A stretch of DNA of 64,000 nt, taken from a virus. How positions within the stretch are numbered: position 1 is the first letter of the stretch; the number at the start of each line of letters is the position of its first letter. Below the pieces are notes generated by a model. It was given only the letters and a program-made list of their open reading frames with translations. It was not told where the DNA came from and searched no databases. Of this stretch, positions 2,844-61,689 are shown piece by piece. The stretch is taken from positions 14,419 through 78,418 of the IMG/VR virus record IMGVR_UViG_3300045988_111115, one strand, 5' to 3'. Position numbers and translations under genes: made by a program.

Positions 2844-2858
2844 ATGGTGGTGAATTTT

Positions 2859-3479
2859 ATGGAATTGTTAAGCATAGGTAAATTTGCTAAAACTGTAGGA
2901 GTAACTACGACAACATTAAGAAGAATGCATCAAAGTGGCGAGTTAATTCCTGCACATATTTCAAATGGTGGAACAAGGTATTATTCTACGGAACAATTAA
3001 AATTATTCCAATCAAGTAATAATGAAAGAATAGTTATTGGTTATTGTAGAGTAAGTACTCCATCACAAAAAGACGATTTAGAAACACAAGTACAAAATGT
3101 TAAATCATATATGTATGCTAAGGGATATAAATTTGACATTATAAAAGACATTGGTTCGGGTATAAATTATAAAAAGAAAGGTTTAAAAGAACTCATTAAT
3201 AGGATAGAAAATAATGAAGTTTCTAAAGTTGTAATTTTATATAAAGATAGGTTGATTCGATTTGGATTTGAATTAATTGAATATTTGTGTGAAATTAATA
3301 ACGTAGAAATAGAAGTTATAGACAATTCGGAATGTAGTAAAGAGAAAGAATTAACAGATGATTTAATTCAAATTATTACAGTTTTTGCGAATAGATTGTA
3401 TGGACAACGTTCAAAGAAAACAAAACGACTTATTAATGAGGTGAGAAACAATGCTGATAACAAAGAAAATCAGACTTAA
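2859..3479 (+). CDS. tnpA: IS607-family transposase TnpA (serine recombinase with N-terminal MerR-like HTH)
   Basis: HTH FAKTVGVTTTTLRRM and resolvase catalytic region YCRVSTPSQ. The ORF track starts at 2844, but the in-frame ATG at 2859 has the better RBS. Overlaps tnpB as in IS607. Confidence 0.8.
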   Translation: MELLSIGKFAKTVGVTTTTLRRMHQSGELIPAHISNGGTRYYSTEQLKLFQSSNNERIVIGYCRVSTPSQKDDLETQVQNVKSYMYAKGYKFDIIKDIGSGINYKKKGLKELINRIENNEVSKVVILYKDRLIRFGFELIEYLCEINNVEIEVIDNSECSKEKELTDDLIQIITVFANRLYGQRSKKTKRLINEVRNNADNKENQT

Positions 3480-4629
3480 ACCGACAACTGAACAAGAAAT
3501 ATTATTTCGTAAAAGTGCTGGTGTATCGAGATGGGCATATAATTTCTTTTTAGGTGAGAATGAACGAATATACAGAGAGTATATTGACAATGGAAAAGTT
3601 GGTAAGAAAAGCATTAGCGAAGGTGATGTTAGGAAATACATAAATAATATATTAAAACCAACTACTCATTCTTGGCTCAAAGAAGTTGGAAGTAATGTAA
3701 TGAAACAAGGTGTTAAAGATGCCAGTCTTGCATTGCAAAGATATTTTAAAGGCTTGTCTGGAAAGCCCAAATTTAAGTCCAAACATAAAGACAGACCGAG
3801 TTTTTATGTCAATTATGAAAGTCTTTCAAGAAAACAAGGTGGTTTTCAAGGAGAAAAAATAGGCTTTGTAAAAACATCGGAGGCACTTCCTAAACTAAAT
3901 AAAAATGAAAAATATTCAAATCCAAGAATAACGTTTGACGGAAAATATTGGTATCTATCTGTTGGCTATGAAGTGCAAGAAAGCACAGTGGAATTAACAG
4001 ACGAAAGTTTAGGAATAGATTTAGGAGTTAAAGATTTAGCAATTTGTTCAAACGGAAAGGTTTATAAAAATATAAACAAAACTCAAAGAGTTAAAAAGTT
4101 AGAGAAGAAACTAAAACGTGAACAGCGAAAATTATCAAGGAAGATTGAAAATAATATTCAATCATATAAATCAAATAGAAACCCTATATACAAAAGACCT
4201 TTGAAAGAATGTCAAAACATTCAAAAACAAAATCGTCTAATACGAAATATACATAGAAAACTTGCAAATATTCGTCAAAACCATTTACATCAAACAACGA
4301 CAGAGATAGTGAAAACCAAACCATCTCGAATAGTTATGGAAAGTTTAAATGTAAGTGGAATGATGAAAAATAAACATTTATCAAAAGCAATACAACAACA
4401 AAAATTTTATGAATTCAAAAGACAAATTGAATATAAGTCAAAACTAAATGGGATTGAATTCATTCAAGTTGATAAGTTTTATCCAAGTAGTAAAACTTGT
4501 AGTTGTTGTGGAAATATCAAGAAAGATTTAAAACTTTCGGACAGAATGTATAAATGTGATGTTTGTGGTCTGGTTATTGACCGAGATTACAATGCAAGTA
4601 TAAATTTAGCAAATTATGAAGTTATATAA
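3451..4629 (+). CDS. tnpB: TnpB (OrfB) RuvC-like RNA-guided nuclease of an IS605/IS607-family element
   Basis: N-terminal IRLKPTxEQ motif, RuvC-I IDLGVKD, and C-terminal zinc finger CSCCGN...CDVCG followed by DRDYNASINL (RuvC-III). Confidence 0.8.
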   Translation: MLITKKIRLKPTTEQEILFRKSAGVSRWAYNFFLGENERIYREYIDNGKVGKKSISEGDVRKYINNILKPTTHSWLKEVGSNVMKQGVKDASLALQRYFKGLSGKPKFKSKHKDRPSFYVNYESLSRKQGGFQGEKIGFVKTSEALPKLNKNEKYSNPRITFDGKYWYLSVGYEVQESTVELTDESLGIDLGVKDLAICSNGKVYKNINKTQRVKKLEKKLKREQRKLSRKIENNIQSYKSNRNPIYKRPLKECQNIQKQNRLIRNIHRKLANIRQNHLHQTTTEIVKTKPSRIVMESLNVSGMMKNKHLSKAIQQQKFYEFKRQIEYKSKLNGIEFIQVDKFYPSSKTCSCCGNIKKDLKLSDRMYKCDVCGLVIDRDYNASINLANYEVI

Positions 4630-9242: not shown

Positions 9243-10043
9243 ATGAACACTAAAGGTAATTTTAAAGCAGAAGCAAAGGGAGCAATTAGACGTGTAATGT
9301 CAATGGTAGCACTAAGTGTATTTGCAGATGAGGGAGACCCTCAACCACCAACTAATACAGGTGCTACAAGTACTCAGCAAATCAACTATGAAGAGTTGAT
9401 TAAACAGGCAAGACAAGAAGAGAAAGATAAACTCTACGGTCAAATCAATACCCTAAAGGAACGAAACAAAGTATTAGTCGAAAGCAATAACGAAACACTT
9501 ATTAAGTGTGCAGAGTTAAAGGCTCAACTTGAAGCAGAAATCGCAAAGCAGAACAATGGGGAAAAGACAGAAGAAGTACTAAAACTTGAAAAGCGTATCA
9601 GTGAGTTGGAAGATGAGAATAAGACTTTAAAGGAAAGTACACCTGATGAAGCTACTCTAAGACAACAAATTGAAGCCGAGTTTACGGTGAAAAATCACCT
9701 AAGCACAGTTAAGGAAAAGAACAAAGACAAAGTACTTGATGTCTTTATGGACGAGATTACAGGTAACACTGTAGAAGAAATTGATAACTCTTTGGCTAAA
9801 GCTATTGAGAAGTCAGACAGTGTACGTAAGCAAGTAATCGGTGATAAGCCTGACGGTAATAAGAAACCACAGATTGGAGAAGACCCTAAAGACCCTAAGC
9901 AGAGTAAACCTGCAACACCACCTGTAGCAAACCCTAACGGCGGTAGTACAATGCCTAAAGGTTTTGACCCTGAGTATGTACGTGGCTTGCAACCTGGTAC
10001 ACCTGAGTATGAAGAGTTCAGAAAGTCATTAGGTCTACACTAA
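9243..10043 (+). CDS. scaffolding protein
   Basis: Coiled-coil protein rich in E, K and Q, located between portal and capsid. Confidence 0.6.
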   Translation: MNTKGNFKAEAKGAIRRVMSMVALSVFADEGDPQPPTNTGATSTQQINYEELIKQARQEEKDKLYGQINTLKERNKVLVESNNETLIKCAELKAQLEAEIAKQNNGEKTEEVLKLEKRISELEDENKTLKESTPDEATLRQQIEAEFTVKNHLSTVKEKNKDKVLDVFMDEITGNTVEEIDNSLAKAIEKSDSVRKQVIGDKPDGNKKPQIGEDPKDPKQSKPATPPVANPNGGSTMPKGFDPEYVRGLQPGTPEYEEFRKSLGLH

Positions 10044-32362: not shown

Positions 32363-32647
32363 GTGGAAACAGAAAATGAAAAAGAGTTATGGGAGAGACT
32401 GACTGCGGTAGAACAGTCCACAAAGTCGGCGCACCACCGCTTAGACAGCTTGGACAAACTAACCGAGAGCGTCCACATCATAGCTACAGAAACTAAAGCA
32501 ATGCGTGGGGACGTAAATGATATAACCGAACGTGTGGACGAAATCGAAAAACGTCCTACAAAGCGGTACGAAACAGTAGTTACCGCCATTATTACTGCAA
32601 TAGTAGGCGGATTGATAGGTTATTTTATTAAAATGTTGGGTTTTTAG
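32363..32647 (+). CDS. XhlA-like haemolysin/lysis accessory protein
   Basis: N-terminal coiled coil plus a single C-terminal TM helix (VVTAIITAIVGGLIGYFI). Confidence 0.6.
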   Translation: METENEKELWERLTAVEQSTKSAHHRLDSLDKLTESVHIIATETKAMRGDVNDITERVDEIEKRPTKRYETVVTAIITAIVGGLIGYFIKMLGF

Positions 32648-32674
32648 CATTTTAAAATTAGGAGGTATGTAAAA

Positions 32675-32896
32675 ATGAAAGATTGGTTTAAAGCGGCAGG
32701 AATAAGAGCAATCAAGACGATTGCACAGACAGCGATAGCAACAGTAGGTACTGCTGTTGCTATGGGAGACGTAAATTGGGTATTAGTAGGTAGTGCCTCT
32801 GCACTTGCAGGAATACTTTCCCTACTAACATCTATTGCAGGTCTTCCTGAACTTGATAGCCCCAAAGAAGAAAACAAAGAAGAAAACAAAGAATGA
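32675..32896 (+). CDS. holin
   Basis: 73 aa ORF with two TM segments and a charged C-terminal tail ([10 protein letters not shown]), directly upstream of the endolysin. Confidence 0.65.
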
Positions 32897-32907
32897 GGTG
32901 TTTAGTA

Positions 32908-33746
32908 TGACTGCAATAGAAAAAGTAATACGAGTTGCAGAGAATGAGGTGGGTTATTTAGAGAAAGCGAGTAACTCACAGCTTGACAGCAAAACCGCTA
33001 ATGCAGGTACAGCTAACTACACTAAGTATTGGAGAGACATCAAGCCTGACTATCAAGGTCAGCCTTGGTGTGCGTGTTTTGTCACTTGGTGTTTTGTAAA
33101 TGCCTTTGGTGTTAGCAATGCACTTAAGCTATTAAAGCACTATCCATATGTTTACTGCCCGACTATGGCTTCTCTTTTTACCCTTAATTCCAACCCAAAA
33201 GTTGGAGACATAGTAATCTTTAAGCATAACGGTGAATTTACTCATACGGGTATTGTAACCGTAGTAGATGGAGACTACTTTGAAACAGTAGAGGGTAATA
33301 CAAGTGGCGGTAGTACTATTATAGCTAATGGTGGTGGAGTATGTAAAAAGAGCTACTACAACAGTAACTTACCTGGAACTAAGTTTTGCACTCCTGAATG
33401 GAGTATTGTATCTAATGAAAGTGAGGGACTAACAGTGACACAGTATGAAGAGTTAAAAGACCTTATAACAAAACAAGGTACTATTATTGCACAGCTTAAA
33501 GCTGAAAATGCAGTACTTAAAGAGGAAAACGTCAAGATAATGAATGTATTGGAGAGTACTTTTGTCTTTGACTATGTAGACGAAAATATGCCTGATTGGG
33601 CAAAACCTGCTGTTCTTGCCGCAGTAAAGAGCGGTGCTATTCAAGGTAAAGATGAGAGTGGCAGACTTGGTTTGAGTTATAAGGACCTAAGACAAATTGT
33701 AAGAGAGTACAGACAAGGTATTTATGACAAACCGTCAGTACATTAA
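32908..33746 (+). CDS. endolysin with N-terminal CHAP domain
   Basis: CHAP Cys in QPWCACFVTWCF and His in FTHTGIV, plus a C-terminal coiled coil. The ORF track starts at 32835 inside the holin, and the ATG at 32908 is the likelier start. Confidence 0.7.
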
Positions 33747-52072: not shown

Positions 52073-53041
52073 ATGCAACTAATTTTAGAGCCAAAAGTAA
52101 AAGAGATTGAGTATGAGGGTCTTACCCCTCTAAGCCTTATTGAACGTGTAGGCAGAACTTGTTATAAGTCAACATCTGAGTATACAGAAGAGACCGCAAG
52201 AAAGTTTTTTAATATGCTTGCAAGTAAAGGTCATTATTCTATGTTTGAACACGCAAACCTTGTTTTTCAGCTTGATACAAGCTATTGGTTTGAAGATGTT
52301 ATAAACTGTACCGCATATGATACTGAACTTATTAATGCTTTGAGGTACTTTAATGTCACTCAATTCGGAGACAGAATACTTATCAGCGGAAGTATAAGAG
52401 CCTTTAATGAGTGTACTATTTACCCTATTCGTAATCTTCTTTGGAAATGCGAAAATGACGGTGAAGAGATATACCATTATGATACCACAGAGCACTTGAC
52501 AAGCCCTTGTCCCTACACAGGTAATTTGAGCGGTGTTAGATACATTAAAGACCTGAACACTCTATCAAAATTGACCTTAGATGAGGTTTTAGCACATACA
52601 TATATGACCCTTGATATTGAGTGTGACAGAGGTATTACTCACGAACTTGTAAGACACCGTAATTGTGCTTTTGCTCAGGAAAGTACAAGATACTGCAACT
52701 ATACAGCTGATAAGTTCGGAGATGATATTTACTTTATGCGACCACCTGAGATAGCTTTGAAAGACCTTAAAAAGTATGAAAAGATGAAGCAGGCATATGC
52801 AGACAGTGAAAAACTGTACAAAGAACTTGTTACAGGAGGACTTGCACCTGAATTTGCAAGAGGTATTTTACCTACCGCTTTGAAGTCGGAGATAGTCATT
52901 ACAGCTAATCTTAAAGAGTGGAAACACATCATTGATTTACGCTATAAGGAGACTACAGGAAAAGTACACCCTCACATTAAGCAAGTTGCTAAGAAAGCAA
53001 AGGAATTTTACGACAAAAAGCTACTTTCAGTAATTGGCTAA
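52073..53041 (+). CDS. thyX: flavin-dependent thymidylate synthase ThyX
   Basis: ThyX signature RHRx7S is present as ITHELVRHRNCAFAQES. Confidence 0.8.
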   Translation: MQLILEPKVKEIEYEGLTPLSLIERVGRTCYKSTSEYTEETARKFFNMLASKGHYSMFEHANLVFQLDTSYWFEDVINCTAYDTELINALRYFNVTQFGDRILISGSIRAFNECTIYPIRNLLWKCENDGEEIYHYDTTEHLTSPCPYTGNLSGVRYIKDLNTLSKLTLDEVLAHTYMTLDIECDRGITHELVRHRNCAFAQESTRYCNYTADKFGDDIYFMRPPEIALKDLKKYEKMKQAYADSEKLYKELVTGGLAPEFARGILPTALKSEIVITANLKEWKHIIDLRYKETTGKVHPHIKQVAKKAKEFYDKKLLSVIG

Positions 53042-53096
53042 TTTAAACACTAAAGAGGGTACAGTTATAAAACACTGTACCCTCTTAAATTACTAC

Positions 53097-53125
53097 TTGC
53101 AATTTAATACAATACGTGGTATAAT
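53097..53125 (+). promoter_or_regulatory. promoter TTGCAA-17-TATAAT with TGn extension, preceded by a hairpin at 53054-53083
   Basis: Consensus-like hexamers and an extended -10 TGGTATAAT. Confidence 0.5.
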
Positions 53126-53178
53126 GCACTTAAAATAAAGCCTTGTGTAAAGGTATAATATTGAAAGGAGTAGTAAAC

Positions 53179-53625
53179 GTGAAGTTTAAAGTAACACAAA
53201 AGGGTTTAGCTAATGCAGAGCAAGTACACGAGAGCAATGTTAAGAAAGGCAGAAGAAGTAAAGTCAAAGGTAGCAACTTTGAGAGAGACGTAGCCAAGAA
53301 GTTTAAATCGGTCTACAAAGAAGACTTAACACGTACACCACAAAGTGGTGGTTTCTCTAAGAAGTCTGAAAAGGCTGATGATTTCAGGGGTGATATTGTA
53401 TGTCTTAATCCTGATGTCGATATGCAGGTACACGTTGAGTGTAAAAATGCAAAGACTTGGAGCTTACCTAAGTGGCTTGAACAAGCTGAAAATGATTGTC
53501 CTAAAGGGAAAGTTCCTGTAGTAGTGTTCCATAAACACGGTACATCTAAAGACTACATAGCTTTATCCTTAGAGGACTTTTTTAGTTTAGTGCCTAAGGA
53601 AGCAATCTTCAAGGAGGTAAAGTAG
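53179..53625 (+). CDS. PD-(D/E)xK nuclease, Hjc-like (paralog of 46890-47366)
   Basis: GSNFERDV...GDIVCL...VECKN. GTG start after GAAAGGAG. Confidence 0.45.
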   Translation: MKFKVTQKGLANAEQVHESNVKKGRRSKVKGSNFERDVAKKFKSVYKEDLTRTPQSGGFSKKSEKADDFRGDIVCLNPDVDMQVHVECKNAKTWSLPKWLEQAENDCPKGKVPVVVFHKHGTSKDYIALSLEDFFSLVPKEAIFKEVK

Positions 53626-53626
53626 T

Positions 53627-53992
53627 ATGCACAGTGTATTGTTGTATAGCTTGATAATTGTTATTATTGTACTTATAATACTTTGTATAGTGTATCAGGT
53701 ACTTAGACCCATAGTGGTTTGCGGTGATAGTATGTTCCCAACTCTAAAAGAGAATGACATATTCTTTGCAGTAAGGGTAACTAAGCATACAGAGTTTAGA
53801 GTAGGAGAGATATACATATACCGTCCACCATATTCAAATGGTAGAAAGCACTATGTTATTAAGAGACTGACACGCATTGAACCCTACAGTAAAAAACTGT
53901 ACTTTGAGGGAGATAACAAAGATGTAAGCTTTGACAGTAGAGCATATGGCTATATATCTCGTGAGGACGTTAAGTTTCGTGTATTAGTTTAG
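53627..53992 (+). CDS. type I signal peptidase (S26 family)
   Basis: N-terminal TM helix, catalytic Ser box GDSMFPTL, Lys box VIKRL, and box E GDNKDVSFDSRAYG. Confidence 0.7.
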   Translation: MHSVLLYSLIIVIIVLIILCIVYQVLRPIVVCGDSMFPTLKENDIFFAVRVTKHTEFRVGEIYIYRPPYSNGRKHYVIKRLTRIEPYSKKLYFEGDNKDVSFDSRAYGYISREDVKFRVLV

Positions 53993-54009
53993 AAAGGAGT
54001 AGTAATTCA

Positions 54010-54294
54010 GTGAAAGAATTAAAGCAGATTAAAGTATCAGGTAGCACTTCGGTACATCAACTTGCAAGCAGTATTGTAAAGTTCATCAATGAGGGTTATG
54101 ATATTGAAGTAAGAGCCTTAGGTGCAAGTGCTGTAAACCAAATGTACAAAGGTGTAACCATTGCACGAGGTACTGTAGCACAGAAAGGTAAAGACCTTTT
54201 AATTAAACCAGGTTTTGCTGATGTTACCGAAACAGACAAAGACGGTAATGATAAGTCTAAGACAGTAATGGTTGCACATCTTGTCATTGGCTAA
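54010..54294 (+). CDS. spoVS: SpoVS-family protein (stage V sporulation protein S homolog)
   Basis: Recalled similarity to the SpoVS consensus along the full length: LKVS..S...LA..I...I.E....E..A.GA.A.NQ..K...IARG. Confidence 0.65.
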   Translation: MKELKQIKVSGSTSVHQLASSIVKFINEGYDIEVRALGASAVNQMYKGVTIARGTVAQKGKDLLIKPGFADVTETDKDGNDKSKTVMVAHLVIG

Positions 54295-54307: not shown

Positions 54308-54697
54308 ATGAAGAACATCACAGTAACAAAGAGATTTACTTTTGAAGCAAGTCATAACCTTATTAAGTATGAGGGTAAGTGCTCTAACTTACACGGTCAT
54401 TCCTATAAGTTAGAGGTATCTTTTACAAGTGAGTCGAGATTGAATAGCCAAGGTATGGTGTTAGACTTTAATCTCATTGATGAGATAGTAAAACCTATAG
54501 TAGATAGGTACGACCACCACTATTTAAACGACTTCTTCTCTAACCCGACCGCAGAAGTTATGGCAGGAAGCATTTTTAATGAGATACAGTACATCTTAAG
54601 TGATAGGAATAACATTCCGAACTTTGAGGGTATTTACATTTCAGAAGTTAAGCTGTGGGAGACTGAGAAATGCTTTGTGTCCGTAAAGGGGGATTGA
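54308..54697 (+). CDS. queD: 6-carboxytetrahydropterin synthase QueD
   Basis: CxxxHGH motif (CSNLHGHSYKLEV). ATG 54308 follows GGAGGA. Confidence 0.75.
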   Translation: MKNITVTKRFTFEASHNLIKYEGKCSNLHGHSYKLEVSFTSESRLNSQGMVLDFNLIDEIVKPIVDRYDHHYLNDFFSNPTAEVMAGSIFNEIQYILSDRNNIPNFEGIYISEVKLWETEKCFVSVKGD

Positions 54698-54699
54698 AA

Positions 54700-54837
54700 A
54701 TGCAAGGACTAAGATACCACAAACAAGCTAAATGTAAGTACTGCAAAAAGCCGATTATGCTAAGCAGAGCATTAAACCTAAGTGAGCAGAAAAACTATGT
54801 CTGTCCTGACTGTCGTAGAGAGGGGGTACGTAGTTAA
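54700..54837 (+). CDS. 45-aa zinc-ribbon protein
   Basis: CKYC...CPDC, RBS AAGGGGGA, and an end abutting the queE start. Absent from the ORF track. Confidence 0.4.
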   Translation: MQGLRYHKQAKCKYCKKPIMLSRALNLSEQKNYVCPDCRREGVRS

Positions 54838-55488
54838 ATGCTATACTATGATGAGGTGTTCCAAAGTATTCAAGGTGAGAGTACTTCCGCAGGTCTACCT
54901 TGTGTATTTGTAAGACTGTTTGGTTGTAATGTAGGTTGTTCCTATTGCGACCAACCACAAAAGAAAGAGCAGAAAAAGCGTATAAGCGTTGACAAACTCA
55001 TAAATAAAATACTAAGCTACCATATACCAAGGGTATGTATTACAGGAGGAGAGCCTTTATTGCAACAGGAAATATATCCTGTAGTATATGACCTTGTTAA
55101 AAGGGGTTATGATGTATCTATTGAGACAAGCGGTTGTGTTCCGATTGATAACGACGGTTATGTCAGAAAACATAAATACATTATGGACGTTAAGTGCCCA
55201 AGTAGCAAAGTATCACATAAGAATATTTTTGATAACCTTGCTAAACTGCATTTAATAGATGAGGTTAAGTACGTTATTAAGGATAGAGCTGACTATGATT
55301 TTGCAAGGGACATTATGAGAAAGTACCCTACAAATGCAAAGGTACTTTTCAGTCCTGTAATGGAACTTGATGAAAATGGTACTTGGAAATGTGCCGTTTC
55401 TAAAGACCTTGTTAAGTGGGTATTAGAAGACGGGCTAACCAATGTACGTATTCAAGTACAACTACATAAATTTTTGGAGGTGCAGTAA
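54838..55488 (+). CDS. queE: 7-carboxy-7-deazaguanine synthase QueE (radical SAM)
   Basis: CNVGCSYCD cluster and GGEPLL. Confidence 0.75.
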   Translation: MLYYDEVFQSIQGESTSAGLPCVFVRLFGCNVGCSYCDQPQKKEQKKRISVDKLINKILSYHIPRVCITGGEPLLQQEIYPVVYDLVKRGYDVSIETSGCVPIDNDGYVRKHKYIMDVKCPSSKVSHKNIFDNLAKLHLIDEVKYVIKDRADYDFARDIMRKYPTNAKVLFSPVMELDENGTWKCAVSKDLVKWVLEDGLTNVRIQVQLHKFLEVQ

Positions 55489-55919
55489 TGTTAGACAGAG
55501 AGCCTATAAAAGACTTTAGAGATGAACAGGAACTAAATAGCTGTTTAGAAGAGTGGCAGAGAATACTCTACCTTGATGATTGGGTTATTCAAGCACGTCT
55601 CATAGACCGCCCCTCTTTGGAAGAGATGAGTGGTGAAAATCTACAAGGAAGAAATGAATTTAACATCATAAATAAGTCCTCTGTAATTTATGTAATAAAA
55701 GCAGATGATTATGCTAACTCTACTGTGCGGAAATACTGTGCAGAGAAAGTACTTGTACACGAACTATTGCACTGTAAGTATAATTGGCTAAGTCCTCCCA
55801 ATACCTTAGAGGGTAGGTACTTTGATACCCTTGAACATCAGCTTTTAGAAGATATGGCAAAGTCTTTAATACTTGCCCGATACAATATAACTAAAGATTG
55901 GTTTAGGAATATTGGGTAG
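55488..55919 (+). CDS. hypothetical protein with HExxH motif
   Basis: VLVHELLHC. Confidence 0.35.
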   Translation: MLDREPIKDFRDEQELNSCLEEWQRILYLDDWVIQARLIDRPSLEEMSGENLQGRNEFNIINKSSVIYVIKADDYANSTVRKYCAEKVLVHELLHCKYNWLSPPNTLEGRYFDTLEHQLLEDMAKSLILARYNITKDWFRNIG

Positions 55920-56190
55920 ACAAGTCTATCACTGCGGAGAATTTAAAATCTACAGAGCAGGTAAAGGGTACATAGTACATAATACAAACAAGCCTTTTAA
56001 GAGAGGTCATACTCATATAAATGACTTCTCTACAGCAAAGTATATAATACATCTTAGCAGACATAAGTTGATACCTAAGCACTTATCTATTTACCTTTGG
56101 GTGAGCCTTGAAAGAATAAGTGTTAATAAGGAATACTGCAAGAAGCTAAGATGTATCATAGAAGATAAAACTATAAATAACCAATTTTAA
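55912..56190 (+). CDS. hypothetical protein
   Basis: ORF within the modification cluster. Confidence 0.35.
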   Translation: MGRQVYHCGEFKIYRAGKGYIVHNTNKPFKRGHTHINDFSTAKYIIHLSRHKLIPKHLSIYLWVSLERISVNKEYCKKLRCIIEDKTINNQF

Positions 56191-56203: not shown

Positions 56204-56482
56204 ATGGCAAACAAAAACGAACTAATTGAACGTGTATCAAAAGAAATGGGTGTTTCACTTACTCAAGCAAAGACAGCAGTAAACGCAGTACTTCAAGGTA
56301 TTGGTGATACAGTTATTGAAAATGGCAGACTTCAACTTGTTGGTTTCGGCACTTTTGAGGTAAGAGACAGAGCTGAAAGAAAGGGTAAAAACCCTCAGAC
56401 AGGTAAAGAAATGACTATCCCTGCAACAAAGGTATTTGCTTTTAAAGCAGGTAAGACATTGAAAGATAAGCTAAACGCTTAA
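56204..56482 (+). CDS. hup: HU-family histone-like DNA-binding protein
   Basis: Full-length HU signature (NKNELIERVS...GFGTFEVRDRAERKGKNPQTGKEM...FKAGK). Confidence 0.85.
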   Translation: MANKNELIERVSKEMGVSLTQAKTAVNAVLQGIGDTVIENGRLQLVGFGTFEVRDRAERKGKNPQTGKEMTIPATKVFAFKAGKTLKDKLNA

Positions 56483-56502: not shown

Positions 56503-56533
56503 CAGGGTTAGTATTTAATGCTGACCCTTTTTC
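56503..56533 (+). terminator. weak rho-independent terminator after hup
   Basis: AGGGT...ACCCT 5-bp stem followed by TTTTTC. Confidence 0.35.
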
Positions 56534-56556: not shown

Positions 56557-58251
56557 ATGGATAATGATAAAGTAGTAGCATTATGTAGTGGAGGTTTTGA
56601 TAGTATAGTACTACTCCACGACTTACGACATAACAACCCTGACTTAGAAATACATACACTGTTCTTTGATTACGGTCAGAGAAATAAGGTAGCAGAGCAA
56701 AGGTGTGCCGAAAAGGCTTCAAGAAAGCTAAAGTGTACACTACACATAGTAAAGATACCACCAATATCTTGGACTAACAGTAACTTCTATGGTGAAGACT
56801 TTAAAGACGCACCTACACAGTACTTAGAGTATCGCAATTTAATCTTTTTCTCTTATGCCCTGTCATTAGCACAGAGTTATGGAGCAACAGGAATTTATGC
56901 CGCCATACTGAAATCACATTGGGGATATGCTGATACCTCTAAAGAGTTTATAAGTGCTTTAAATACACTGTCTGAGCTACAAGGTATTTCAATATTTACA
57001 CCTTATGCAGATGTAGATAAGAATGCACTCGGTCCTTTAGCATTTGAGTATGGTGTATATGTAGGCGATTGGTTTTCTTGCGACACACCAAAGGTAGATG
57101 AACAAGGCTTACTTGTACCTTGTGGTGAGTGCCCTGATTGTGTAACTCTAAAGAGGTTTGAATATCAGTTGAGTAAATCGCCTGTACGTGAAGCCTTTGT
57201 AAATGGGAAAGTAGACACAACTACACAGAAGTTTCAGGAGAGCTTAAGAGAGTACCCTATAAGAGAATTAAGGGTACTGACTAATAACTCTTGTCAACTT
57301 AAATGCCCCCATTGCTTCTATGGCTTTGATAAGATGAAAGGAGACCCTTTAACATATGATGAGATGTATTGGGTAATAAAGCAAGCTATTAATGACATAG
57401 GTGTTAAGAGTTTGCACTATGCAGGTAAAGAGCCTTTGTTCAATAGAGATATTTGGAGATACATAGAGAGGGTACGACAGGAATACCCTAACATAGAACA
57501 GAGTATTGTTACTAATGGTATAAACGTCACAAGAGACCTTGACTTGATTGTTAAGAACAAGGTAGAACTCTTTCTAAGTATAGATAGTAGCATTTTAAAA
57601 TCTACTGAGGAGCATATCAGAGATATAGTAGTAACACAAGACCTATTGAATGTCCTAAGAAATAAGGGAGTACCTGTAACAGTCTTTATAGACTTACACG
57701 AGGGTACTTATGATAAGGTATATGAACTAATAGACACTCTGAGAAAGAATTGCGGAGTAAGTAATTTTCATATACGTACTCTAAGACCCATAGGAAATGC
57801 TAAAAAGAATAACATAATGCTAAGTGAGGATAAAGTGATGTACGCTTTAGTACAGGCTTATACCTACTGCAAGTGCTATCCTAATGAGGACTTTAAGATA
57901 ACTGTAGATGTAGGCTTAGACTACTCAACAAAGTTGCTACAGGTAGATAATGAGATTACTCGACTAAGCAAAGAGAATTTTGTAAAAGGTTATTTGAATA
58001 TAGCTAAAAACTTCTCTATCTCTTGGGAGTTATTCTGTAATAAATATGTACATACACTTACTGTATCTCCTGACGGATATATTTTTGGTTGTGGTATGGA
58101 ACTTGCTAATGCAGATTATGATAAAATTTCTGTAGGAAATGCTCGTGAGTACACCTTAAAGACACTGCTTGCTATAGGTAAAGAGAAGAGCGTTAGTATC
58201 AATAAGGACATCTGTAAGGGTGATTGTATCACTTGCAAATTTAATAAGTAA
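56557..58251 (+). CDS. queC: QueC (7-cyano-7-deazaguanine synthase) fused to a radical-SAM/SPASM-like domain
   Basis: PP-loop LCSGGFDS and QueC zinc site SCDTP...CGECPDC in aa 1-210. Then CQLKCPHCFY (CxxxCxxC), AGKEPLF, and a C-terminal Cys cluster CG...CKGDCITC. Confidence 0.7.
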   Translation: MDNDKVVALCSGGFDSIVLLHDLRHNNPDLEIHTLFFDYGQRNKVAEQRCAEKASRKLKCTLHIVKIPPISWTNSNFYGEDFKDAPTQYLEYRNLIFFSYALSLAQSYGATGIYAAILKSHWGYADTSKEFISALNTLSELQGISIFTPYADVDKNALGPLAFEYGVYVGDWFSCDTPKVDEQGLLVPCGECPDCVTLKRFEYQLSKSPVREAFVNGKVDTTTQKFQESLREYPIRELRVLTNNSCQLKCPHCFYGFDKMKGDPLTYDEMYWVIKQAINDIGVKSLHYAGKEPLFNRDIWRYIERVRQEYPNIEQSIVTNGINVTRDLDLIVKNKVELFLSIDSSILKSTEEHIRDIVVTQDLLNVLRNKGVPVTVFIDLHEGTYDKVYELIDTLRKNCGVSNFHIRTLRPIGNAKKNNIMLSEDKVMYALVQAYTYCKCYPNEDFKITVDVGLDYSTKLLQVDNEITRLSKENFVKGYLNIAKNFSISWELFCNKYVHTLTVSPDGYIFGCGMELANADYDKISVGNAREYTLKTLLAIGKEKSVSINKDICKGDCITCKFNK

Positions 58252-58293: not shown

Positions 58294-58385
58294 AGACATA
58301 AGTAGGTGCTGAGGTTTCATATTTCCCTCACACTGTGTATAAGTCCTTATGCCTTAAAATATGTTGTGAAAGGAGGGTGTTTATT

Positions 58386-59111: not shown

Positions 59112-59672
59112 GTGCAAGAGATGATTAATAATAAAGTTGAAGAGATAAAGAAACACGTTGAAGCTATTGCGGATATACTCGGTATTGAGAAAACAGAGAG
59201 TAACGAAAATACCCCATTAAGAGTGGCTAAGATGTACTGTAATGAACTATTTGTCAACAGGAATAATGATAATATTGAGGAATTAAATTCTCGTATGAAA
59301 GTATTTTCTGCTGACGGTAATTCATCACCTGTTAAGATGGACAATATACCTTTTAACTCTGTTTGTGAACATCATTGGCTACCATTCTTCGGAACAGTGT
59401 CAGTACACTATGAGCCACAAGATAAGATAATAGGTCTTTCTAAAATTCCGAGAGTGGTTAAGTACTTTTCAAAGAAGCCACAGCTACAAGAGAGGTTGAC
59501 ACAAGAGATAGGGGAATATCTTGTATCGGTATTAAAACCTAAGTCTCTGACCGTAACAATAACTGCTACACATACTTGTGTTATGTGCAGAGGTATTGAA
59601 AGTCCTTGTGATACCACTACGGAGTTTAAATACAATGCTTCGAGAGGGGAGATTAATAGTGAAACTACCTAA
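59112..59672 (+). CDS. folE: GTP cyclohydrolase I FolE
   Basis: CEHH zinc motif, SKIPR, and an overall FolE layout. Confidence 0.75.
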   Translation: MQEMINNKVEEIKKHVEAIADILGIEKTESNENTPLRVAKMYCNELFVNRNNDNIEELNSRMKVFSADGNSSPVKMDNIPFNSVCEHHWLPFFGTVSVHYEPQDKIIGLSKIPRVVKYFSKKPQLQERLTQEIGEYLVSVLKPKSLTVTITATHTCVMCRGIESPCDTTTEFKYNASRGEINSETT

Positions 59673-61689
59673 AAAGGTTACACCCATCTTCAAAAAAGCA
59701 GAGGTAGTAGAGAAACCTAAGTATACCGACCTAAGACAAGTAATGGACTATACACGTCCTCTTAATATTTTCTTTTCGGGTGTTGAGTATGAAAGTTACC
59801 TTGAAATACTTTATAACTTGGGTATTCGTAATTTTCTTATGTCTTATGAGTATTTAAGAGGTAAAGGTATTTCTCAGCTTAAAAAGTACCCTGATATGCA
59901 CTTGTTCATAGATAGTGGTGCTTTTACGTACATCAATGACCCAAAGTATGAGGAGTACACTGTTGAGCAGTGGGAAAACCAAATAGAGAAGTACTTGAAT
60001 TGGGCTGAAAAACACAAAGACCAAATATTTGCTATTGCAGACCTTGACCTACAGTATGTAGTAGGGTGTGAGCAAGTTTATGAGTGGAGAAAGAAGTACT
60101 TTGAGCCGTTTATGCTAAGAACAGGAATACCTGTTTGCTTTATGTATCACGACGAGGGTATGTCTCAATGGGAGTATATGTGTAAGCGTTATCCTTATGT
60201 CGGACTTTCTCTTGTAGTTGATAATGGAAATGATGTTAAAGAGATGTTCCGTATAGCTGAAAAGCATAATACACTTATACAAGGTATGGCTTCTACTAAT
60301 ACTCAGATGTTGGTTAATTACCCTTTCTACACAGTAGATAGTACTACTTGGAATGTTGGATTGAAATATGGTGAAATATCTGTTTGGAATGGCTCTAAAA
60401 TGTCTCGTATCAAGAAGCAAGACTTTCAGTCTAAAGGTTTTCCCATTATACAAAGGTACGACAGAGACTTTGATTTTGACCTTATCTTAGAAGAGGATAA
60501 GACAGAAATGATAAAGGTAAATGCCTATGCGTTTGTTATGGCAGAGAAGTACATAAGGGAGCGTTTAAAGTCAAAAATGTATTGGTTTAAAGCTAAGGCA
60601 CAGAAAGTTGACTTGAATAATCTACCTGAGGACTTCTACCCTACCCAAGAGATGATTAATGACAGGACACTTACACTACCTCAGGCTCAAGAGTATGCTA
60701 AGAAGATGAACATTAACCCTGAATATGAGGGAGTACTGAACTTAGTATGTGATTTGACTACTTTTATGAATTGGGATAACCCCGATTATGCAGAACTTGT
60801 AGAGTGGTACAAAGACCCTGAGCAAGAAAAACTTATACAGGAACTTCACGACATCTATGTAAACCGTATAGTAGAAAGTAAAGAGGATATGTATTCCGAC
60901 CTTACTAAATTCTTTACTGAATGTGTTTCAGGTGAGAATGACAAGTTACTACAGTTAGGTACTAACTTTGACCGAATAGTCAAGGAGAGAGAACACTACA
61001 TAGAAGAGGAAGAGACCGAAGTAGTGGAACTTACAGAAGCACAAGTAAGAGATAGAATTTCTTACTTGCTACCTACCCCTGCTGATGAGGTAGACGAAGT
61101 AGCACTTGCTAAAGTAGACAAGGAGATATACAGCCACCTTGACATAAAACCACAGTTTGATGAGAAAGGTAAATTTCTTAAAGGACAGACTATCGCACGA
61201 AAGCCTAAAAAGGTGTATTCAGATAAGTACCCTAAATTGGCTTGTGATACTTGTTTAAATGCGGCGAAGTGTCCTGAGTACAAAGCAGGTTATGTATGTG
61301 CTTTTAACAAGATGTTTAAGCGTTTTGATACCCGAAATATGACAGATATAATGGAGGGTATGCAGAGTATAGTTGGTTACAATATGGAACGTATGCAAAG
61401 GGCAATGATAAATGAAACACTTAATGGTGTTATTGACCCGACCACTACTTCTTTAATGGACCAAAATATACGTTATATGAATATGCTAAAGCAGATGTAC
61501 GAGAACAGCAGTGCTGAGGTACTAAGACAGTCAAGAGTAATTCGCAATGATGGTACACTTGAAGAGACCACACAAGTAGTTAATCCTCAAAGTGGTGGTA
61601 TACTTGAAAAGATATTTGGTGGAATGAATGAGCCACCTAAGAAAAAGACTGAGGAAGAGAAGATTATCATTGAAGAGAATAAAGAATAA
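59635..61689 (+). CDS. dpdA: DpdA-like 7-deazaguanine DNA transglycosylase (TGT fold) with long C-terminal extension
   Basis: FIDSGAFTY resembles the TGT catalytic DSGGFQ motif. It also has a C-terminal Cys cluster CDTC...C...C and sits among folE and queCDE. The start is either ATG 59635 or GTG 59659. Confidence 0.5.
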   Translation: MLREGRLIVKLPKKVTPIFKKAEVVEKPKYTDLRQVMDYTRPLNIFFSGVEYESYLEILYNLGIRNFLMSYEYLRGKGISQLKKYPDMHLFIDSGAFTYINDPKYEEYTVEQWENQIEKYLNWAEKHKDQIFAIADLDLQYVVGCEQVYEWRKKYFEPFMLRTGIPVCFMYHDEGMSQWEYMCKRYPYVGLSLVVDNGNDVKEMFRIAEKHNTLIQGMASTNTQMLVNYPFYTVDSTTWNVGLKYGEISVWNGSKMSRIKKQDFQSKGFPIIQRYDRDFDFDLILEEDKTEMIKVNAYAFVMAEKYIRERLKSKMYWFKAKAQKVDLNNLPEDFYPTQEMINDRTLTLPQAQEYAKKMNINPEYEGVLNLVCDLTTFMNWDNPDYAELVEWYKDPEQEKLIQELHDIYVNRIVESKEDMYSDLTKFFTECVSGENDKLLQLGTNFDRIVKEREHYIEEEETEVVELTEAQVRDRISYLLPTPADEVDEVALAKVDKEIYSHLDIKPQFDEKGKFLKGQTIARKPKKVYSDKYPKLACDTCLNAAKCPEYKAGYVCAFNKMFKRFDTRNMTDIMEGMQSIVGYNMERMQRAMINETLNGVIDPTTTSLMDQNIRYMNMLKQMYENSSAEVLRQSRVIRNDGTLEETTQVVNPQSGGILEKIFGGMNEPPKKKTEEEKIIIEENKE

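Follow-up and report, generated by a model that had tools for sequence, protein, structure and literature searches.

The gene pair described here, an S26-family peptidase followed by a SpoVS-family protein, is already annotated in the public entry for Bacillus phage BCD7 (NC_019515 / JN712910), the one cultured phage of its lineage, whose host is B. cereus and in which gp32 is a putative signal peptidase I and gp31 a putative stage V sporulation protein S. No experimental study of gp31 or gp32 was found in the literature searched, nor any report there tying S26 or SpoVS to 7-deazaguanine clusters, BCD7 or resolvases. Cellular type I signal peptidases of the P type (S. aureus SpsB, PDB 4wvg-4wvj; B. 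subtilis SipS; E. coli LepB) have a Ser/Lys dyad and a single N-terminal membrane anchor, and SodX, the maturation protease of nickel superoxide dismutase, consists of a minimal S26 core some 90 residues long.

SpoVS proteins have an Alba fold and are predicted to bind nucleic acid (PMC2732212; PMC11621453). They are widespread outside spore formers (PMC2732212, PMC11621453), and members of the Alba superfamily bind nucleic acids (PMC11621453). In B. subtilis, SpoVS occurs in very large amounts and crosslinks to itself; an integrative model in the PDB joins it to the metallophosphoesterase YunD, and YunD in turn pairs with AddB. The B. subtilis spoVS gene presumably lies a few genes downstream of recA. 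The locus compared with these systems lies in the window, by which we mean the whole 64,000-nucleotide stretch of viral DNA that was analysed, and it is a new, distant member of the BCD7 lineage.

The phage and the block around the gene pair

Annotated genes of the window include a terminase, a portal, a major head protein, a tail sheath, a tape measure, DnaB and PolA, and these bear out the phage context in which the original prediction had set the pair. The phage is BCD7-like and tailed, and probably virulent. Identity to BCD7 is 41% for S26, 48% for SpoVS and 58% for the major head protein, without similarity at the nucleotide level, and a nucleotide search against 50,697 phage records returned no match to the window. 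The window endolysin resembles those of Blautia and Monoglobales phages, and the host is probably a low-GC Gram-positive, gut clostridial bacterium, not a Bacillus; a spore-forming host is plausible. A search for tRNA genes from which the host might be deduced found none. As no phage integrase is present among the genes annotated in part of the window and replication genes are encoded by the phage itself, a proposed comparison of sporulation between lysogens and cured cells may be infeasible.

Both members of the pair are present in the open reading frame list on the plus strand, S26 at 53627-53992 and SpoVS at 54010-54294, as predicted. They are genes 2 and 3 of a block that runs from a PDDEXK_15 resolvase through S26, SpoVS, QueD and QueE onward to HU, an apparent operon in the DNA-metabolism module whose genes would be co-transcribed. 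The first gene encodes a PD-(D/E)XK Holliday-junction resolvase (53143..53625, plus strand; PF24608, 85.6 bits; phrog_244, 6.3e-28), translation of which probably begins at codon 13 (53179), judging from homologs of 148-150 aa; it is called as a 148-aa gene in the near-identical contig L007. Downstream of the pair, and likewise on the plus strand, lie QueD (6-carboxytetrahydropterin synthase, 54311..54697; Pfam PTPS, 113.9 bits; TIGR03367, 100.5 with a cut-off of 89.25), a 55-aa ORF with a zinc-ribbon-like CxxC...CxxC pattern (54670..54837), also called as a gene in L007, and a QueE-like radical-SAM enzyme (7-carboxy-7-deazaguanine synthase, 54838..55488; Pfam Radical_SAM), for which the QueE model TIGR04349 ranked first in NCBIfam with 188 bits, under its strict cut-off. 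Two conserved plus-strand ORFs that match no family and are kept in related contigs (55488-55919 and 55912-56190) are followed by an HU-like DNA-binding protein (56204-56482, plus strand; Pfam Bac_DNA_binding, 106 bits).

The edges of the block were examined by pattern scan. A hairpin with a 13-bp stem lies just after ThyX (53053-53086) and is followed by a promoter-like site on the plus strand (53097-53125; TTGCAA, 17 nt, TATAAT, with TG before the second hexamer), and together they form a putative operon start (53053..53125, plus strand). The scan listed the hairpin as minus-strand terminator-like, with its T-run on that strand, and we place little weight on a plus-strand role. By consensus pattern, the promoter count of the region was not above that of shuffled sequence. 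A terminator-like hairpin on the plus strand at 56504-56528 is the putative operon end.

As in BCD7, the gene order is resolvase, S26, SpoVS, QueD, QueE, QueC, FolE and a DpdA-like transglycosylase, and the PDDEXK_15-S26-SpoVS-QueD-QueE portion is syntenic in BCD7 and in metagenomic contigs (31-64% identity). QueC is plain in BCD7 and a QueC-radical-SAM fusion in the window phage; of these two phages, only BCD7 has ribonucleotide reductase genes nearby and a small ORF, the 65-aa gp33, between resolvase and S26. More than 20 distinct contigs carry S26 and SpoVS genes side by side, at a protein identity of 31-64%. With gp33 of BCD7 as the sole interruption, S26 directly follows the resolvase at all of the S26 loci examined, at a distance ranging (BCD7 excepted) from a 4-nt overlap to a gap of 2 nt. 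The block is part of the replication, recombination and DNA-modification module of a BCD7-like phage. Neither S26 nor SpoVS resembles a host-derived AMG or moron, which would be sporadic, host-like and outside core modules, because the position of both genes within a core block of DNA metabolism is constant throughout a deep lineage of phages, no close homolog of S26 turned up in bacteria, and SpoVS is nearer to phage homologs than to B. subtilis SpoVS.

The compact S26 peptidase

The S26 gene has an ATG start, with GGAGG 9 nt upstream, and begins 1 nt past the stop of the upstream gene. It encodes a protein of 121 aa (MHSVLLYSLIIVIIVLIILCIVYQVLRPIVVCGDSMFPT...VIKRLTR...EGDNKDVSFDSRAYG), in which all of the catalytic boxes and the membrane anchor named in the original prediction were found: GDSM with Ser35 (within GDSMFP, box B), KRL with Lys79 (within IKRL, box D) and GDNxxxSxDSR at residues 95-105, which reads GDNKDVSFDSR. 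Ser35 and Lys79 align to the corresponding boxes of SpsB and are invariant in alignments of 12 and of 46 homologs; across the 46 diverse homologs the invariant residues are G33, S35, M36, P38, K79, R80, G95, D96, N97, S101, D103 and G108. Scores passed the cut-offs of both Pfam Peptidase_S26 (PF10502; 48.2 bits, cut-off 22.9, E 1.5e-12) and NCBIfam TIGR02227 for bacterial signal peptidase I (53.2 bits, cut-off 47). The N-terminus is strongly hydrophobic (Kyte-Doolittle 2.86 over 19 aa), and the AlphaFold model (pLDDT 82) has an N-terminal helix at residues 2-25, approximately the extent of the predicted transmembrane helix.

The protein shares with P-type signal peptidases the Ser/Lys dyad, the same boxes, the single N-terminal membrane anchor and the core fold. 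S. aureus SpsB was its best PDB match (E 5.5e-4, TMq 0.61), and SpsB, SipA and human SEC11A all ranked above LexA in the fold search. Unlike the cellular enzymes, it has almost no cytoplasmic N-terminal tail and lacks the large insertion between boxes D and E: only 16 residues lie between Lys79 and Gly95, the beta-sheet insertion or second domain is absent, and the catalytic core is about 95 aa. Its 121 aa compare with a SpsB portion of about 170 aa in 4wvh_A (chain positions ~350-520). The missing insertion makes S26 a size variant and does not affect its catalytic definition. The protein is assigned to the P type (Ser/Lys) and not to the SipW type: against TIGR02228 (ER/archaeal type, SipW/Sec11) it scored 36 bits, under the cut-off of 51.85, and the box D lysine is invariant, so that the Ser/His pair of the ER type is not seen. 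Complementation of a sipW mutant, which had been proposed as a check, is for this reason the wrong test.

An exhaustive profile search returned 1909 representatives of the S26 family at E<=1e-10, a family size of about 1900 being counted here at 50% identity. Nearly all of the best 150 of these 1909 are approximately 105-150 aa long. The N-terminal hydrophobic anchor was present in 143 of 149 representatives, and each catalytic motif was kept in 141-142 of the 149 (approximately 95%; box E motif, 141). Contigs carrying S26 reach at most 60-87 kb, the size of phage genomes, and the compact family was seen only on such phage-sized contigs. No close bacterial homolog was found in a scan of 185,579 species genomes, which gave only ordinary signal peptidases (from spirochaetes and others) at 30% full-length identity or less. 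These distant matches pointed to no bacterial origin and carried no host information.

Flanking charges favoured an N-in, C-out orientation in 190-219 of 257 S26 members, which would place the active site outside the cell; the N-terminal tail, with a mean of 1.4 residues, is nearly absent, so that this topology prediction is weaker than for cellular signal peptidases. An inverted topology, by which the enzyme could reach cytoplasmic proteins, was not favoured by the same charges. A role as a LexA/CI-like self-cleaving regulator was rejected, as the protein has no DNA-binding domain and a fold closer to signal peptidases than to LexA. The motif scan also brought up L019, an HTH-S24 repressor of the ordinary kind with no bearing on S26. 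We consider the protein most likely to be an active Ser/Lys endopeptidase with one N-terminal helix and a catalytic domain on the outer membrane face. Processing of exported proteins by this apparently active, predicted outward-facing enzyme is possible, and it may cut signal-peptide-like segments of such proteins during infection.

Hydropathy and signal-peptide-like scans of all window ORFs yielded no convincing exported phage protein as a substrate. Three candidates were set aside. The N-terminus of the protein at the scaffold position (9243-10043) is weakly signal-like and falls outside the part that its BCD7 and Streptomyces-phage matches cover; it was rejected as chance, as was a 77-aa ORF at 58335 with a similarly weak N-terminus, which looks non-coding; gp33 of BCD7, considered as a small exported substrate, is not hydrophobic. 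The scans showed one other membrane protein, the XhlA-like lysis protein (32363-32647), and the CHAP endolysin (32835-33746) lacks a signal peptide. S26 could also serve the phage at the envelope, where cleavage of a membrane or surface protein of the host might exclude superinfecting phages, remove a receptor or set the time of lysis. A membrane-anchored, predicted outward-facing enzyme would suit such a role, its placement in the DNA-metabolism module suggests early or middle expression, and it is confined to a single lineage of phages, a pattern common among host-specific takeover functions; however, the gene is not beside the lysis genes, and we regard this role as improbable.

The near end-to-end alignment with SodX raises a different explanation, in which S26 would be a dedicated maturation protease and not a general signal peptidase, trimming an N-terminal segment off one phage protein from the same operon and so timing its activity. 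The resolvase, SpoVS or a 7-deazaguanine enzyme would be the candidate targets, and resolvase, S26 and SpoVS would then constitute one functional unit. Residues 31-115 align to positions 3-84 of the 90-position SodX model (TIGR02754, 47.9 bits), thus covering almost all of it, and S26 lacks the large insertion of cellular signal peptidases, as does SodX. The abutting or overlapping of the S26 and resolvase genes at all loci examined but BCD7 fits coupled translation, and in L017, a viral contig unrelated to these, the gene directly after a compact S26 encodes a protein with a clear signal peptide, which suggests a dedicated substrate next door. Nevertheless, the score is under the SodX cut-off of 63.25 whereas the general signal-peptidase model passes, the protein differs from SodX in its strong membrane anchor, and no nickel superoxide dismutase is present among the annotated neighbours. 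The active site is predicted to lie outside the cell, away from cytoplasmic DNA enzymes, and the neighbouring proteins have no signal-like or conserved removable N-terminal segment. Sister phages carry the resolvase family and SpoVS without S26, so neither needs it. Both the dedicated protease and the three-gene functional unit that goes with it appear unlikely to us.

SpoVS and its resolvase neighbours

The full-length SpoVS-family protein expected immediately after S26 is indeed there, separated from it by a 17-nt spacer and preceded by AAAGGAG. The gene has a GTG start, and its 94-aa product (pI 9.26) fits the family length of approximately 86-95 aa. It matched Pfam SpoVS (PF04232) at 64.1 bits (cut-off 24, E 1e-17), phrog_35646 at 2.9e-24 and the Thermus thermophilus SpoVS structure 2eh1 at E 1.4e-9. 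An HMM check had been proposed for the placement of the two proteins, and both families were matched above cut-off, with scores well past anything expected by chance.

The AlphaFold model of SpoVS (pLDDT 91) has the order beta-alpha-beta-alpha-beta-beta (E4-9, H15-27, E31-36, H39-58, E63-75, E81-93), an order shared with Alba, Rpp20 and Pop7, and it has the fold of the solved SpoVS structures. Foldseek returned B. subtilis and T. thermophilus SpoVS first (TM 0.8; 9a7h_B, E 2.7e-9; 2eh1_A, TM 0.82-0.88, rmsd 1.8 A), followed by Alba, Rpp20 and Pop7. Matches within the Alba superfamily had E values of 4e-5 to 1e-3 and TM of 0.57-0.72, those to Alba itself ranging from 5e-5 to 1e-3 with TM of at most 0.72; sequence identity to archaeal Alba (Sso10b) and the RNase P subunits Rpp20/Pop7 is 11-21%, and the likeness is one of predicted fold. 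The protein resembles cellular SpoVS (B. subtilis P45693; T. thermophilus 2eh1, 2ek0) in Pfam family, length, fold and basic character, and like them it probably forms dimers. The median pI across 80 viral loci is 8.5, and net charge is only slightly positive. The window protein differs from cellular SpoVS in having a resolvase neighbour in a phage replication module and in sequence: other phage SpoVS proteins match it at 40-64% identity, that of B. subtilis at only 33%, and structure-based alignments with cellular SpoVS give 27-33%.

Relatives of this SpoVS were found in at least 560 viral stretches, on contigs spanning GC 0.33-0.61 and in phages whose hosts make no endospores (Stenotrophomonas phage TS-12, Streptomyces phages BRock and LuckySocke). 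We examined the 80 viral loci most similar to the window SpoVS, which collapse to about 14 clusters at 70% identity and thus amount to few independent observations. A Holliday-junction resolvase was directly upstream of SpoVS in 76 of the 80. It was a RuvC-like enzyme (phrog_159) in 52 loci, PDDEXK_15 together with S26 in 13, and a phrog_244-type resolvase directly adjoining SpoVS, without S26, in 11; four loci, and also phage TS-12, had no adjacent resolvase. Pfam recognised RuvC in only 1 of 7 ORFs upstream of SpoVS, and the rest required PHROGs; the order RuvC then SpoVS is annotated in phages BRock and LuckySocke. PolA, RecA and a Cas4-like exonuclease lie within 6 kb at most of the 80 loci.

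Both types of resolvase adjoin SpoVS proteins of a single 70%-identity cluster, which indicates that the resolvase was swapped while the position was kept. Sister phages have the phrog_244-type resolvase family directly beside SpoVS and no S26, and in one sub-clade a 724-aa NrdD gene sits between S26 and SpoVS. The adjacency of S26 and SpoVS is due to insertion of S26 into an older resolvase-SpoVS pair, and this occurred only in the BCD7-like lineage. Gene order shared by related phages can be inherited without a functional link.

The original prediction had classed SpoVS as a gene of host physiology and sporulation and had suggested that the pair jointly manipulates sporulation or exoprotein processing. 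In such a takeover of the host, phage SpoVS would mimic or compete with host SpoVS, delaying or promoting sporulation, and S26 would alter the processing of exoproteins. BCD7 does infect a spore former, and the two SpoVS paralogs of the B. cereus group influence septation, the efficiency of sporulation and the release of spores (PMC8510167). Endolysins similar to that of the window come from phages that infect gut Clostridia, a group with some spore formers; S26 is predicted to lie on the side of the membrane where host pre-proteins are processed; and in virome papers spoVS is counted among the auxiliary genes related to sporulation (PMC8940887). Against this, SpoVS keeps its position beside the resolvase in phages of non-endospore hosts and on contigs of up to 61% GC, it is nearer in sequence to its phage relatives than to B. 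subtilis SpoVS, and its gene lies in a DNA-metabolism operon and not in a moron or lysogeny region. The absence of an integrase among the genes annotated in part of the window also leaves no evident lysogenic state that would reward control of sporulation, and S26 and SpoVS are separable. Neither claim was upheld, and we consider this explanation to have a low probability.

The fixed place of SpoVS next to a resolvase in 76 of 80 loci argues for a nucleic-acid-binding partner and not for a sporulation gene taken from the host. Phage SpoVS is probably a small basic nucleic-acid-binding partner of recombination or replication, linked to the resolvase. It belongs to the ancestral gene set of the module in a very broad group of phages, and we infer that it is a nucleic-acid binder acting together with the resolvase whose gene is just upstream. 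It may recognise, coat or present branched replication or recombination intermediates prior to packaging, and the sporulation programme of the host would not be its target. S26, wedged between the resolvase and SpoVS genes in the BCD7-like lineage, would be co-expressed with both.

Implications for viral SpoVS and S26 proteins

The explanation that we favour, with a rough probability of 0.55, is that the locus combines a resolvase-linked, nucleic-acid-binding SpoVS with a lineage-specific, outward-facing and active S26 in the DNA module of a BCD7-like phage. The near-constant place of viral SpoVS after a resolvase argues for a role in DNA handling, as opposed to the sporulation AMG label used for viromes (PMC8940887), and the link holds for two resolvase families unrelated to each other and for phages whose hosts differ widely. 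A role in DNA handling is a concrete and testable hypothesis for this protein family. The compact S26 proteins form a large family, found only on phage-sized contigs and with a conserved active site, and are candidates for a phage-specific envelope function.

A broader proposal, which we offer as speculation, is that SpoVS proteins are generally Alba-like partners of recombination nucleases, that phage SpoVS is paired with whichever resolvase is present, and that S26 was wedged in between. If this were true, phage SpoVS and a RuvC-like or PD-(D/E)XK resolvase would be a two-gene unit in which SpoVS aids the recognition or resolution of branched DNA before packaging, and the sporulation phenotype of cellular spoVS mutants would be a secondary effect of a chromosome-handling role. 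The many spoVS genes called as viral sporulation AMGs in viromes would then be misassignments, and the minimal S26 of BCD7-like phages, translated with the resolvase, would represent a membrane-linked step without known precedent.

A compact signal-peptidase homolog of phages

The gene for the S26 peptidase (53627-53992, + strand, 121 aa) is preceded by GGAGG and starts 1 base past the stop of the gene upstream. The original prediction, read from sequence alone, described a signal peptidase with all catalytic boxes and a membrane anchor, followed immediately by a full-length SpoVS protein. Both family assignments held in profile searches. The peptidase contains GDSM (Ser35), IKRL (Lys79) and GDNKDVSFDSR (95-105), all preceded by a very hydrophobic N-terminus, and passed the thresholds of Pfam S26 (48.2 vs 22.9 bits) and of TIGR02227 (53.2 vs 47), a curated model in NCBIfam of bacterial signal peptidase I. 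It fell below the cut-offs of the SodX model (47.9 vs 63.25) and of the archaeal/ER-type model, to which SipW-like enzymes belong (36 vs 51.85), and SipW is therefore not the appropriate comparator that it had been proposed to be. The AlphaFold model (mean pLDDT 82) consists of a helix at residues 2-25 and a small beta core, and its best matches in the PDB were S. aureus SpsB (E 5.5e-4, TMq 0.61), S. pyogenes SipA and human SEC11A, with LexA ranking lower.

The family is large, with 1909 representatives recovered at E<=1e-10 by exhaustive profile search. Nearly all of the best 150 of these are about 105-150 aa long; the N-terminal anchor was present in 143 of 149 representatives and each catalytic motif in 141-142. 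Ser35, Lys79 and the GDN/S-D residues were invariant in an alignment of 46 sequences with a mean column identity of 34%. Among 257 members, flanking charges favoured the usual N-in, C-out orientation in 190-219; their N-terminal tails are almost nil (mean 1.4 residues). The family appears confined to phages: contigs bearing it reach phage-genome size at most, no close homolog was found in a scan of bacteria and archaea with one genome per species, and the only two close viral structures in BFVD belong to Bacillus phage BCD7 and one gut myovirus. Each of four members at 31-36% identity lay within the gene block described below. Most likely the protein is an active P-type enzyme resembling signal peptidases, faces outward and is specific to the BCD7-like phage lineage.

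No substrate was found: hydropathy and signal-peptide-like scans of the window ORFs gave no convincing exported protein, and the CHAP endolysin lacks a signal peptide. Between portal and major head protein, the product in the scaffold position (9243-10043) has a signal-peptide-like N-terminus, RRVMSMVALSVFA followed by DEG, but this is probably due to chance since it lies outside the regions that match BCD7 and Streptomyces phages. On an unrelated viral contig (L017, 4766-5902), a compact 136-aa S26 gene is directly followed by a gene whose 235-aa product carries a clear signal peptide (...SWPSFSLA, then TSG) and, at its C-terminus, a membrane segment. These two are likely a dedicated enzyme-substrate pair, and such pairs would thus exist outside the window lineage.

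The pair and its genomic setting

Among cultured phages, protein searches detected the peptidase only in BCD7 (41% identity), where it is annotated as 'putative signal peptidase I' and followed by a 'putative stage V sporulation protein S' with 48% identity to the window SpoVS. The pair thus already exists as a public annotation; our literature search found no paper on it, and the finding as first flagged is an additional instance of a known, unstudied pair. BCD7 shares the gene order of the window, with one small ORF added between resolvase and S26: resolvase, the ORF, S26, SpoVS, QueD, QueE, QueC, FolE and transglycosylase. Metagenomic contigs of 60-87 kb carry this block too, with 31-64% protein identity; one relative (L123, 5692-5940) has a Sequestin-family gene (PF21825) between SpoVS and QueD.

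The window belongs to a tailed phage whose genes all lie on one strand and include terminase, portal, major head protein, sheath, tape measure, DnaB, PolA and a DpdA-like transglycosylase. Directly upstream of the peptidase lies a PD-(D/E)XK Holliday-junction resolvase (53143-53625; Pfam PDDEXK_15, phrog_244), and further upstream are PolA, a RecA-like protein, a second resolvase-like protein, a Cas4-like exonuclease, UvrD helicase, a PF18909 protein and ThyX. SpoVS is followed in order by QueD, a small zinc-ribbon-like ORF, QueE, two unknown ORFs, an HU-like protein, a QueC-radical-SAM fusion, GTP cyclohydrolase I and the transglycosylase. Pattern matches to a hairpin and promoter-like site before the resolvase gene and to a terminator-like hairpin after HU weakly suggest that resolvase to HU form one transcription unit. 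Given these neighbours, the pair lies in a replication, recombination and DNA-modification module, outside any lysogeny or moron region.

The QueC-radical-SAM fusion (56557-58251, 564 aa) comprises QueC at residues 5-197 and a radical-SAM domain that spans residues 243-393, continues past them and contains the cluster motif CQLKCPHC; only generic MoaA/SPASM-type models matched the latter half, far below their cut-offs. It also occurs in five relatives (L015, L016, L018, L122 and L125), while BCD7, L004 and L123 have plain QueC. Term searches of the main phage 7-deazaguanine papers did not return such a fusion, which may be a sign of an undescribed 7-deazaguanine derivative. The transglycosylase (59578-61689, 703 aa) matched phrog_887 (1.1e-65) and no NCBIfam model, and far exceeds the usual length of tRNA-guanine transglycosylases. 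The 7-deazaguanine genes are closely preceded by those for a protein with a dATP/dGTP diphosphohydrolase N-terminal domain (PF18909; 50499-51440) and for ThyX (52073-53041). The DpdA-type pathway is described as acting after replication, and a dGTP-depleting enzyme beside it is a noteworthy combination.

Within the SpoVS loci, the peptidase is limited to the BCD7-like subset, always just after the PDDEXK_15 gene. These neighbours overlap by up to 4 nt or are separated by up to 2 nt, save in BCD7 with its intervening small ORF. In one sub-clade a 724-aa anaerobic ribonucleotide reductase (NrdD-like) gene separates the peptidase from SpoVS, overlapping the end of the S26 gene (6356-8530 in L011; also L012, L027-L030 and L078), and the two genes are therefore separable. 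Their adjacency does not indicate the joint host-physiology function that had been proposed; the peptidase is a lineage-specific, membrane-anchored S26 protein inserted next to SpoVS.

Host and lifestyle

The lysis region (32363-33746) encodes an XhlA-like membrane protein (phrog_937/689) and the CHAP endolysin. Among phages, the endolysin is most closely related to those of Monoglobales phage CHVD 5762 (59.5% identity over 90% of the query) and of Blautia phage Montmirail (68.8% over 58%), the sole host clue obtained. Relatives of the phage came from human faecal and other anaerobic samples, and NrdD in one sub-clade of them indicates anaerobic hosts. The host is likely a gut clostridial bacterium and possibly a spore former.

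No integrase was found among the annotated genes, which cover part of the window. Their sole recombinase belongs to an IS607-like TnpA/TnpB element (2844-4629) that lies within the phage genome ahead of its ligase and terminase genes. In this element the gene for a serine-recombinase transposase (phrog_6620, 1.7e-81) precedes that for a TnpB-like protein (phrog_506, 1.4e-117). The phage encodes a full replication set and is probably virulent, which makes a comparison of lysogens with cured cells doubtful.

SpoVS and Holliday-junction resolvases

The SpoVS gene (54010-54294, + strand) is tightly spaced after the peptidase gene and encodes 94 aa that passed the Pfam SpoVS threshold (64.1 vs 24 bits) and matched the solved Thermus structure by sequence (E 1.4e-9). 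Its model (pLDDT 91; beta-alpha-beta-alpha-beta-beta) resembled SpoVS of B. subtilis and T. thermophilus (TM ~0.8), and next Alba chromatin proteins and the Rpp20/Pop7 subunits of RNase P. This agrees with two papers, which assign SpoVS to the Alba superfamily, predict that it binds nucleic acid and record it widely beyond spore formers (PMC2732212, PMC11621453).

An IMG/VR scan returned at least 560 viral stretches with a SpoVS relative, and neighbourhoods were counted for the 80 closest loci (GC 0.33 to 0.61). Resolvases of two unrelated families lay directly upstream of SpoVS in 76 of these: a RuvC-like enzyme (phrog_159; seven examples checked by PHROGs) in 52, PDDEXK_15 plus S26 in 13, and a short phrog_244-type enzyme, directly adjacent and without S26, in 11 (examples of resolvase-SpoVS loci are L033 5363-6270, L038 5351-6252 and L052 5581-6264). 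Another gene was upstream in the remaining 4. The annotated Streptomyces phages BRock and LuckySocke again showed RuvC then SpoVS, and most of the 80 loci had PolA, RecA-like and Cas4-like genes within 6 kb. Clustering at 70% SpoVS identity reduced the 80 loci to about 14 clusters, so independent observations of this order are few. A single such cluster holds neighbours of both RuvC-type and phrog_244-type resolvases, indicating that the resolvase was swapped and the arrangement kept.

The protein is basic (pI 9.26; median 8.5 across the 80 loci) and shares 40-64% identity with other phage SpoVS vs 33% with that of B. subtilis. B. subtilis SpoVS is very abundant and self-crosslinks (K9-K44) (PMC10090944). 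In PDB 9a7h, an integrative model, it is combined with the metallophosphoesterase YunD, and that crosslinking study (PMC10090944) also pairs YunD with AddB, a recombination nuclease subunit; this connection is a lead only. Taken together, these results favour a role in nucleic-acid handling that is tied to the resolvase.

In virome papers spoVS is listed among auxiliary genes for sporulation (PMC8940887), and the original prediction likewise proposed a sporulation or biofilm role. We disfavour this reading, given the upstream resolvases, the DNA-metabolism module and the greater similarity to phage than to B. subtilis SpoVS; the family calls were right and the functional story mostly unsupported. 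The best explanation of phage SpoVS is that of a putative Alba-like protein partnering the resolvase within a deep phage module, and the resolvase-SpoVS association is the part of the finding worth following up.
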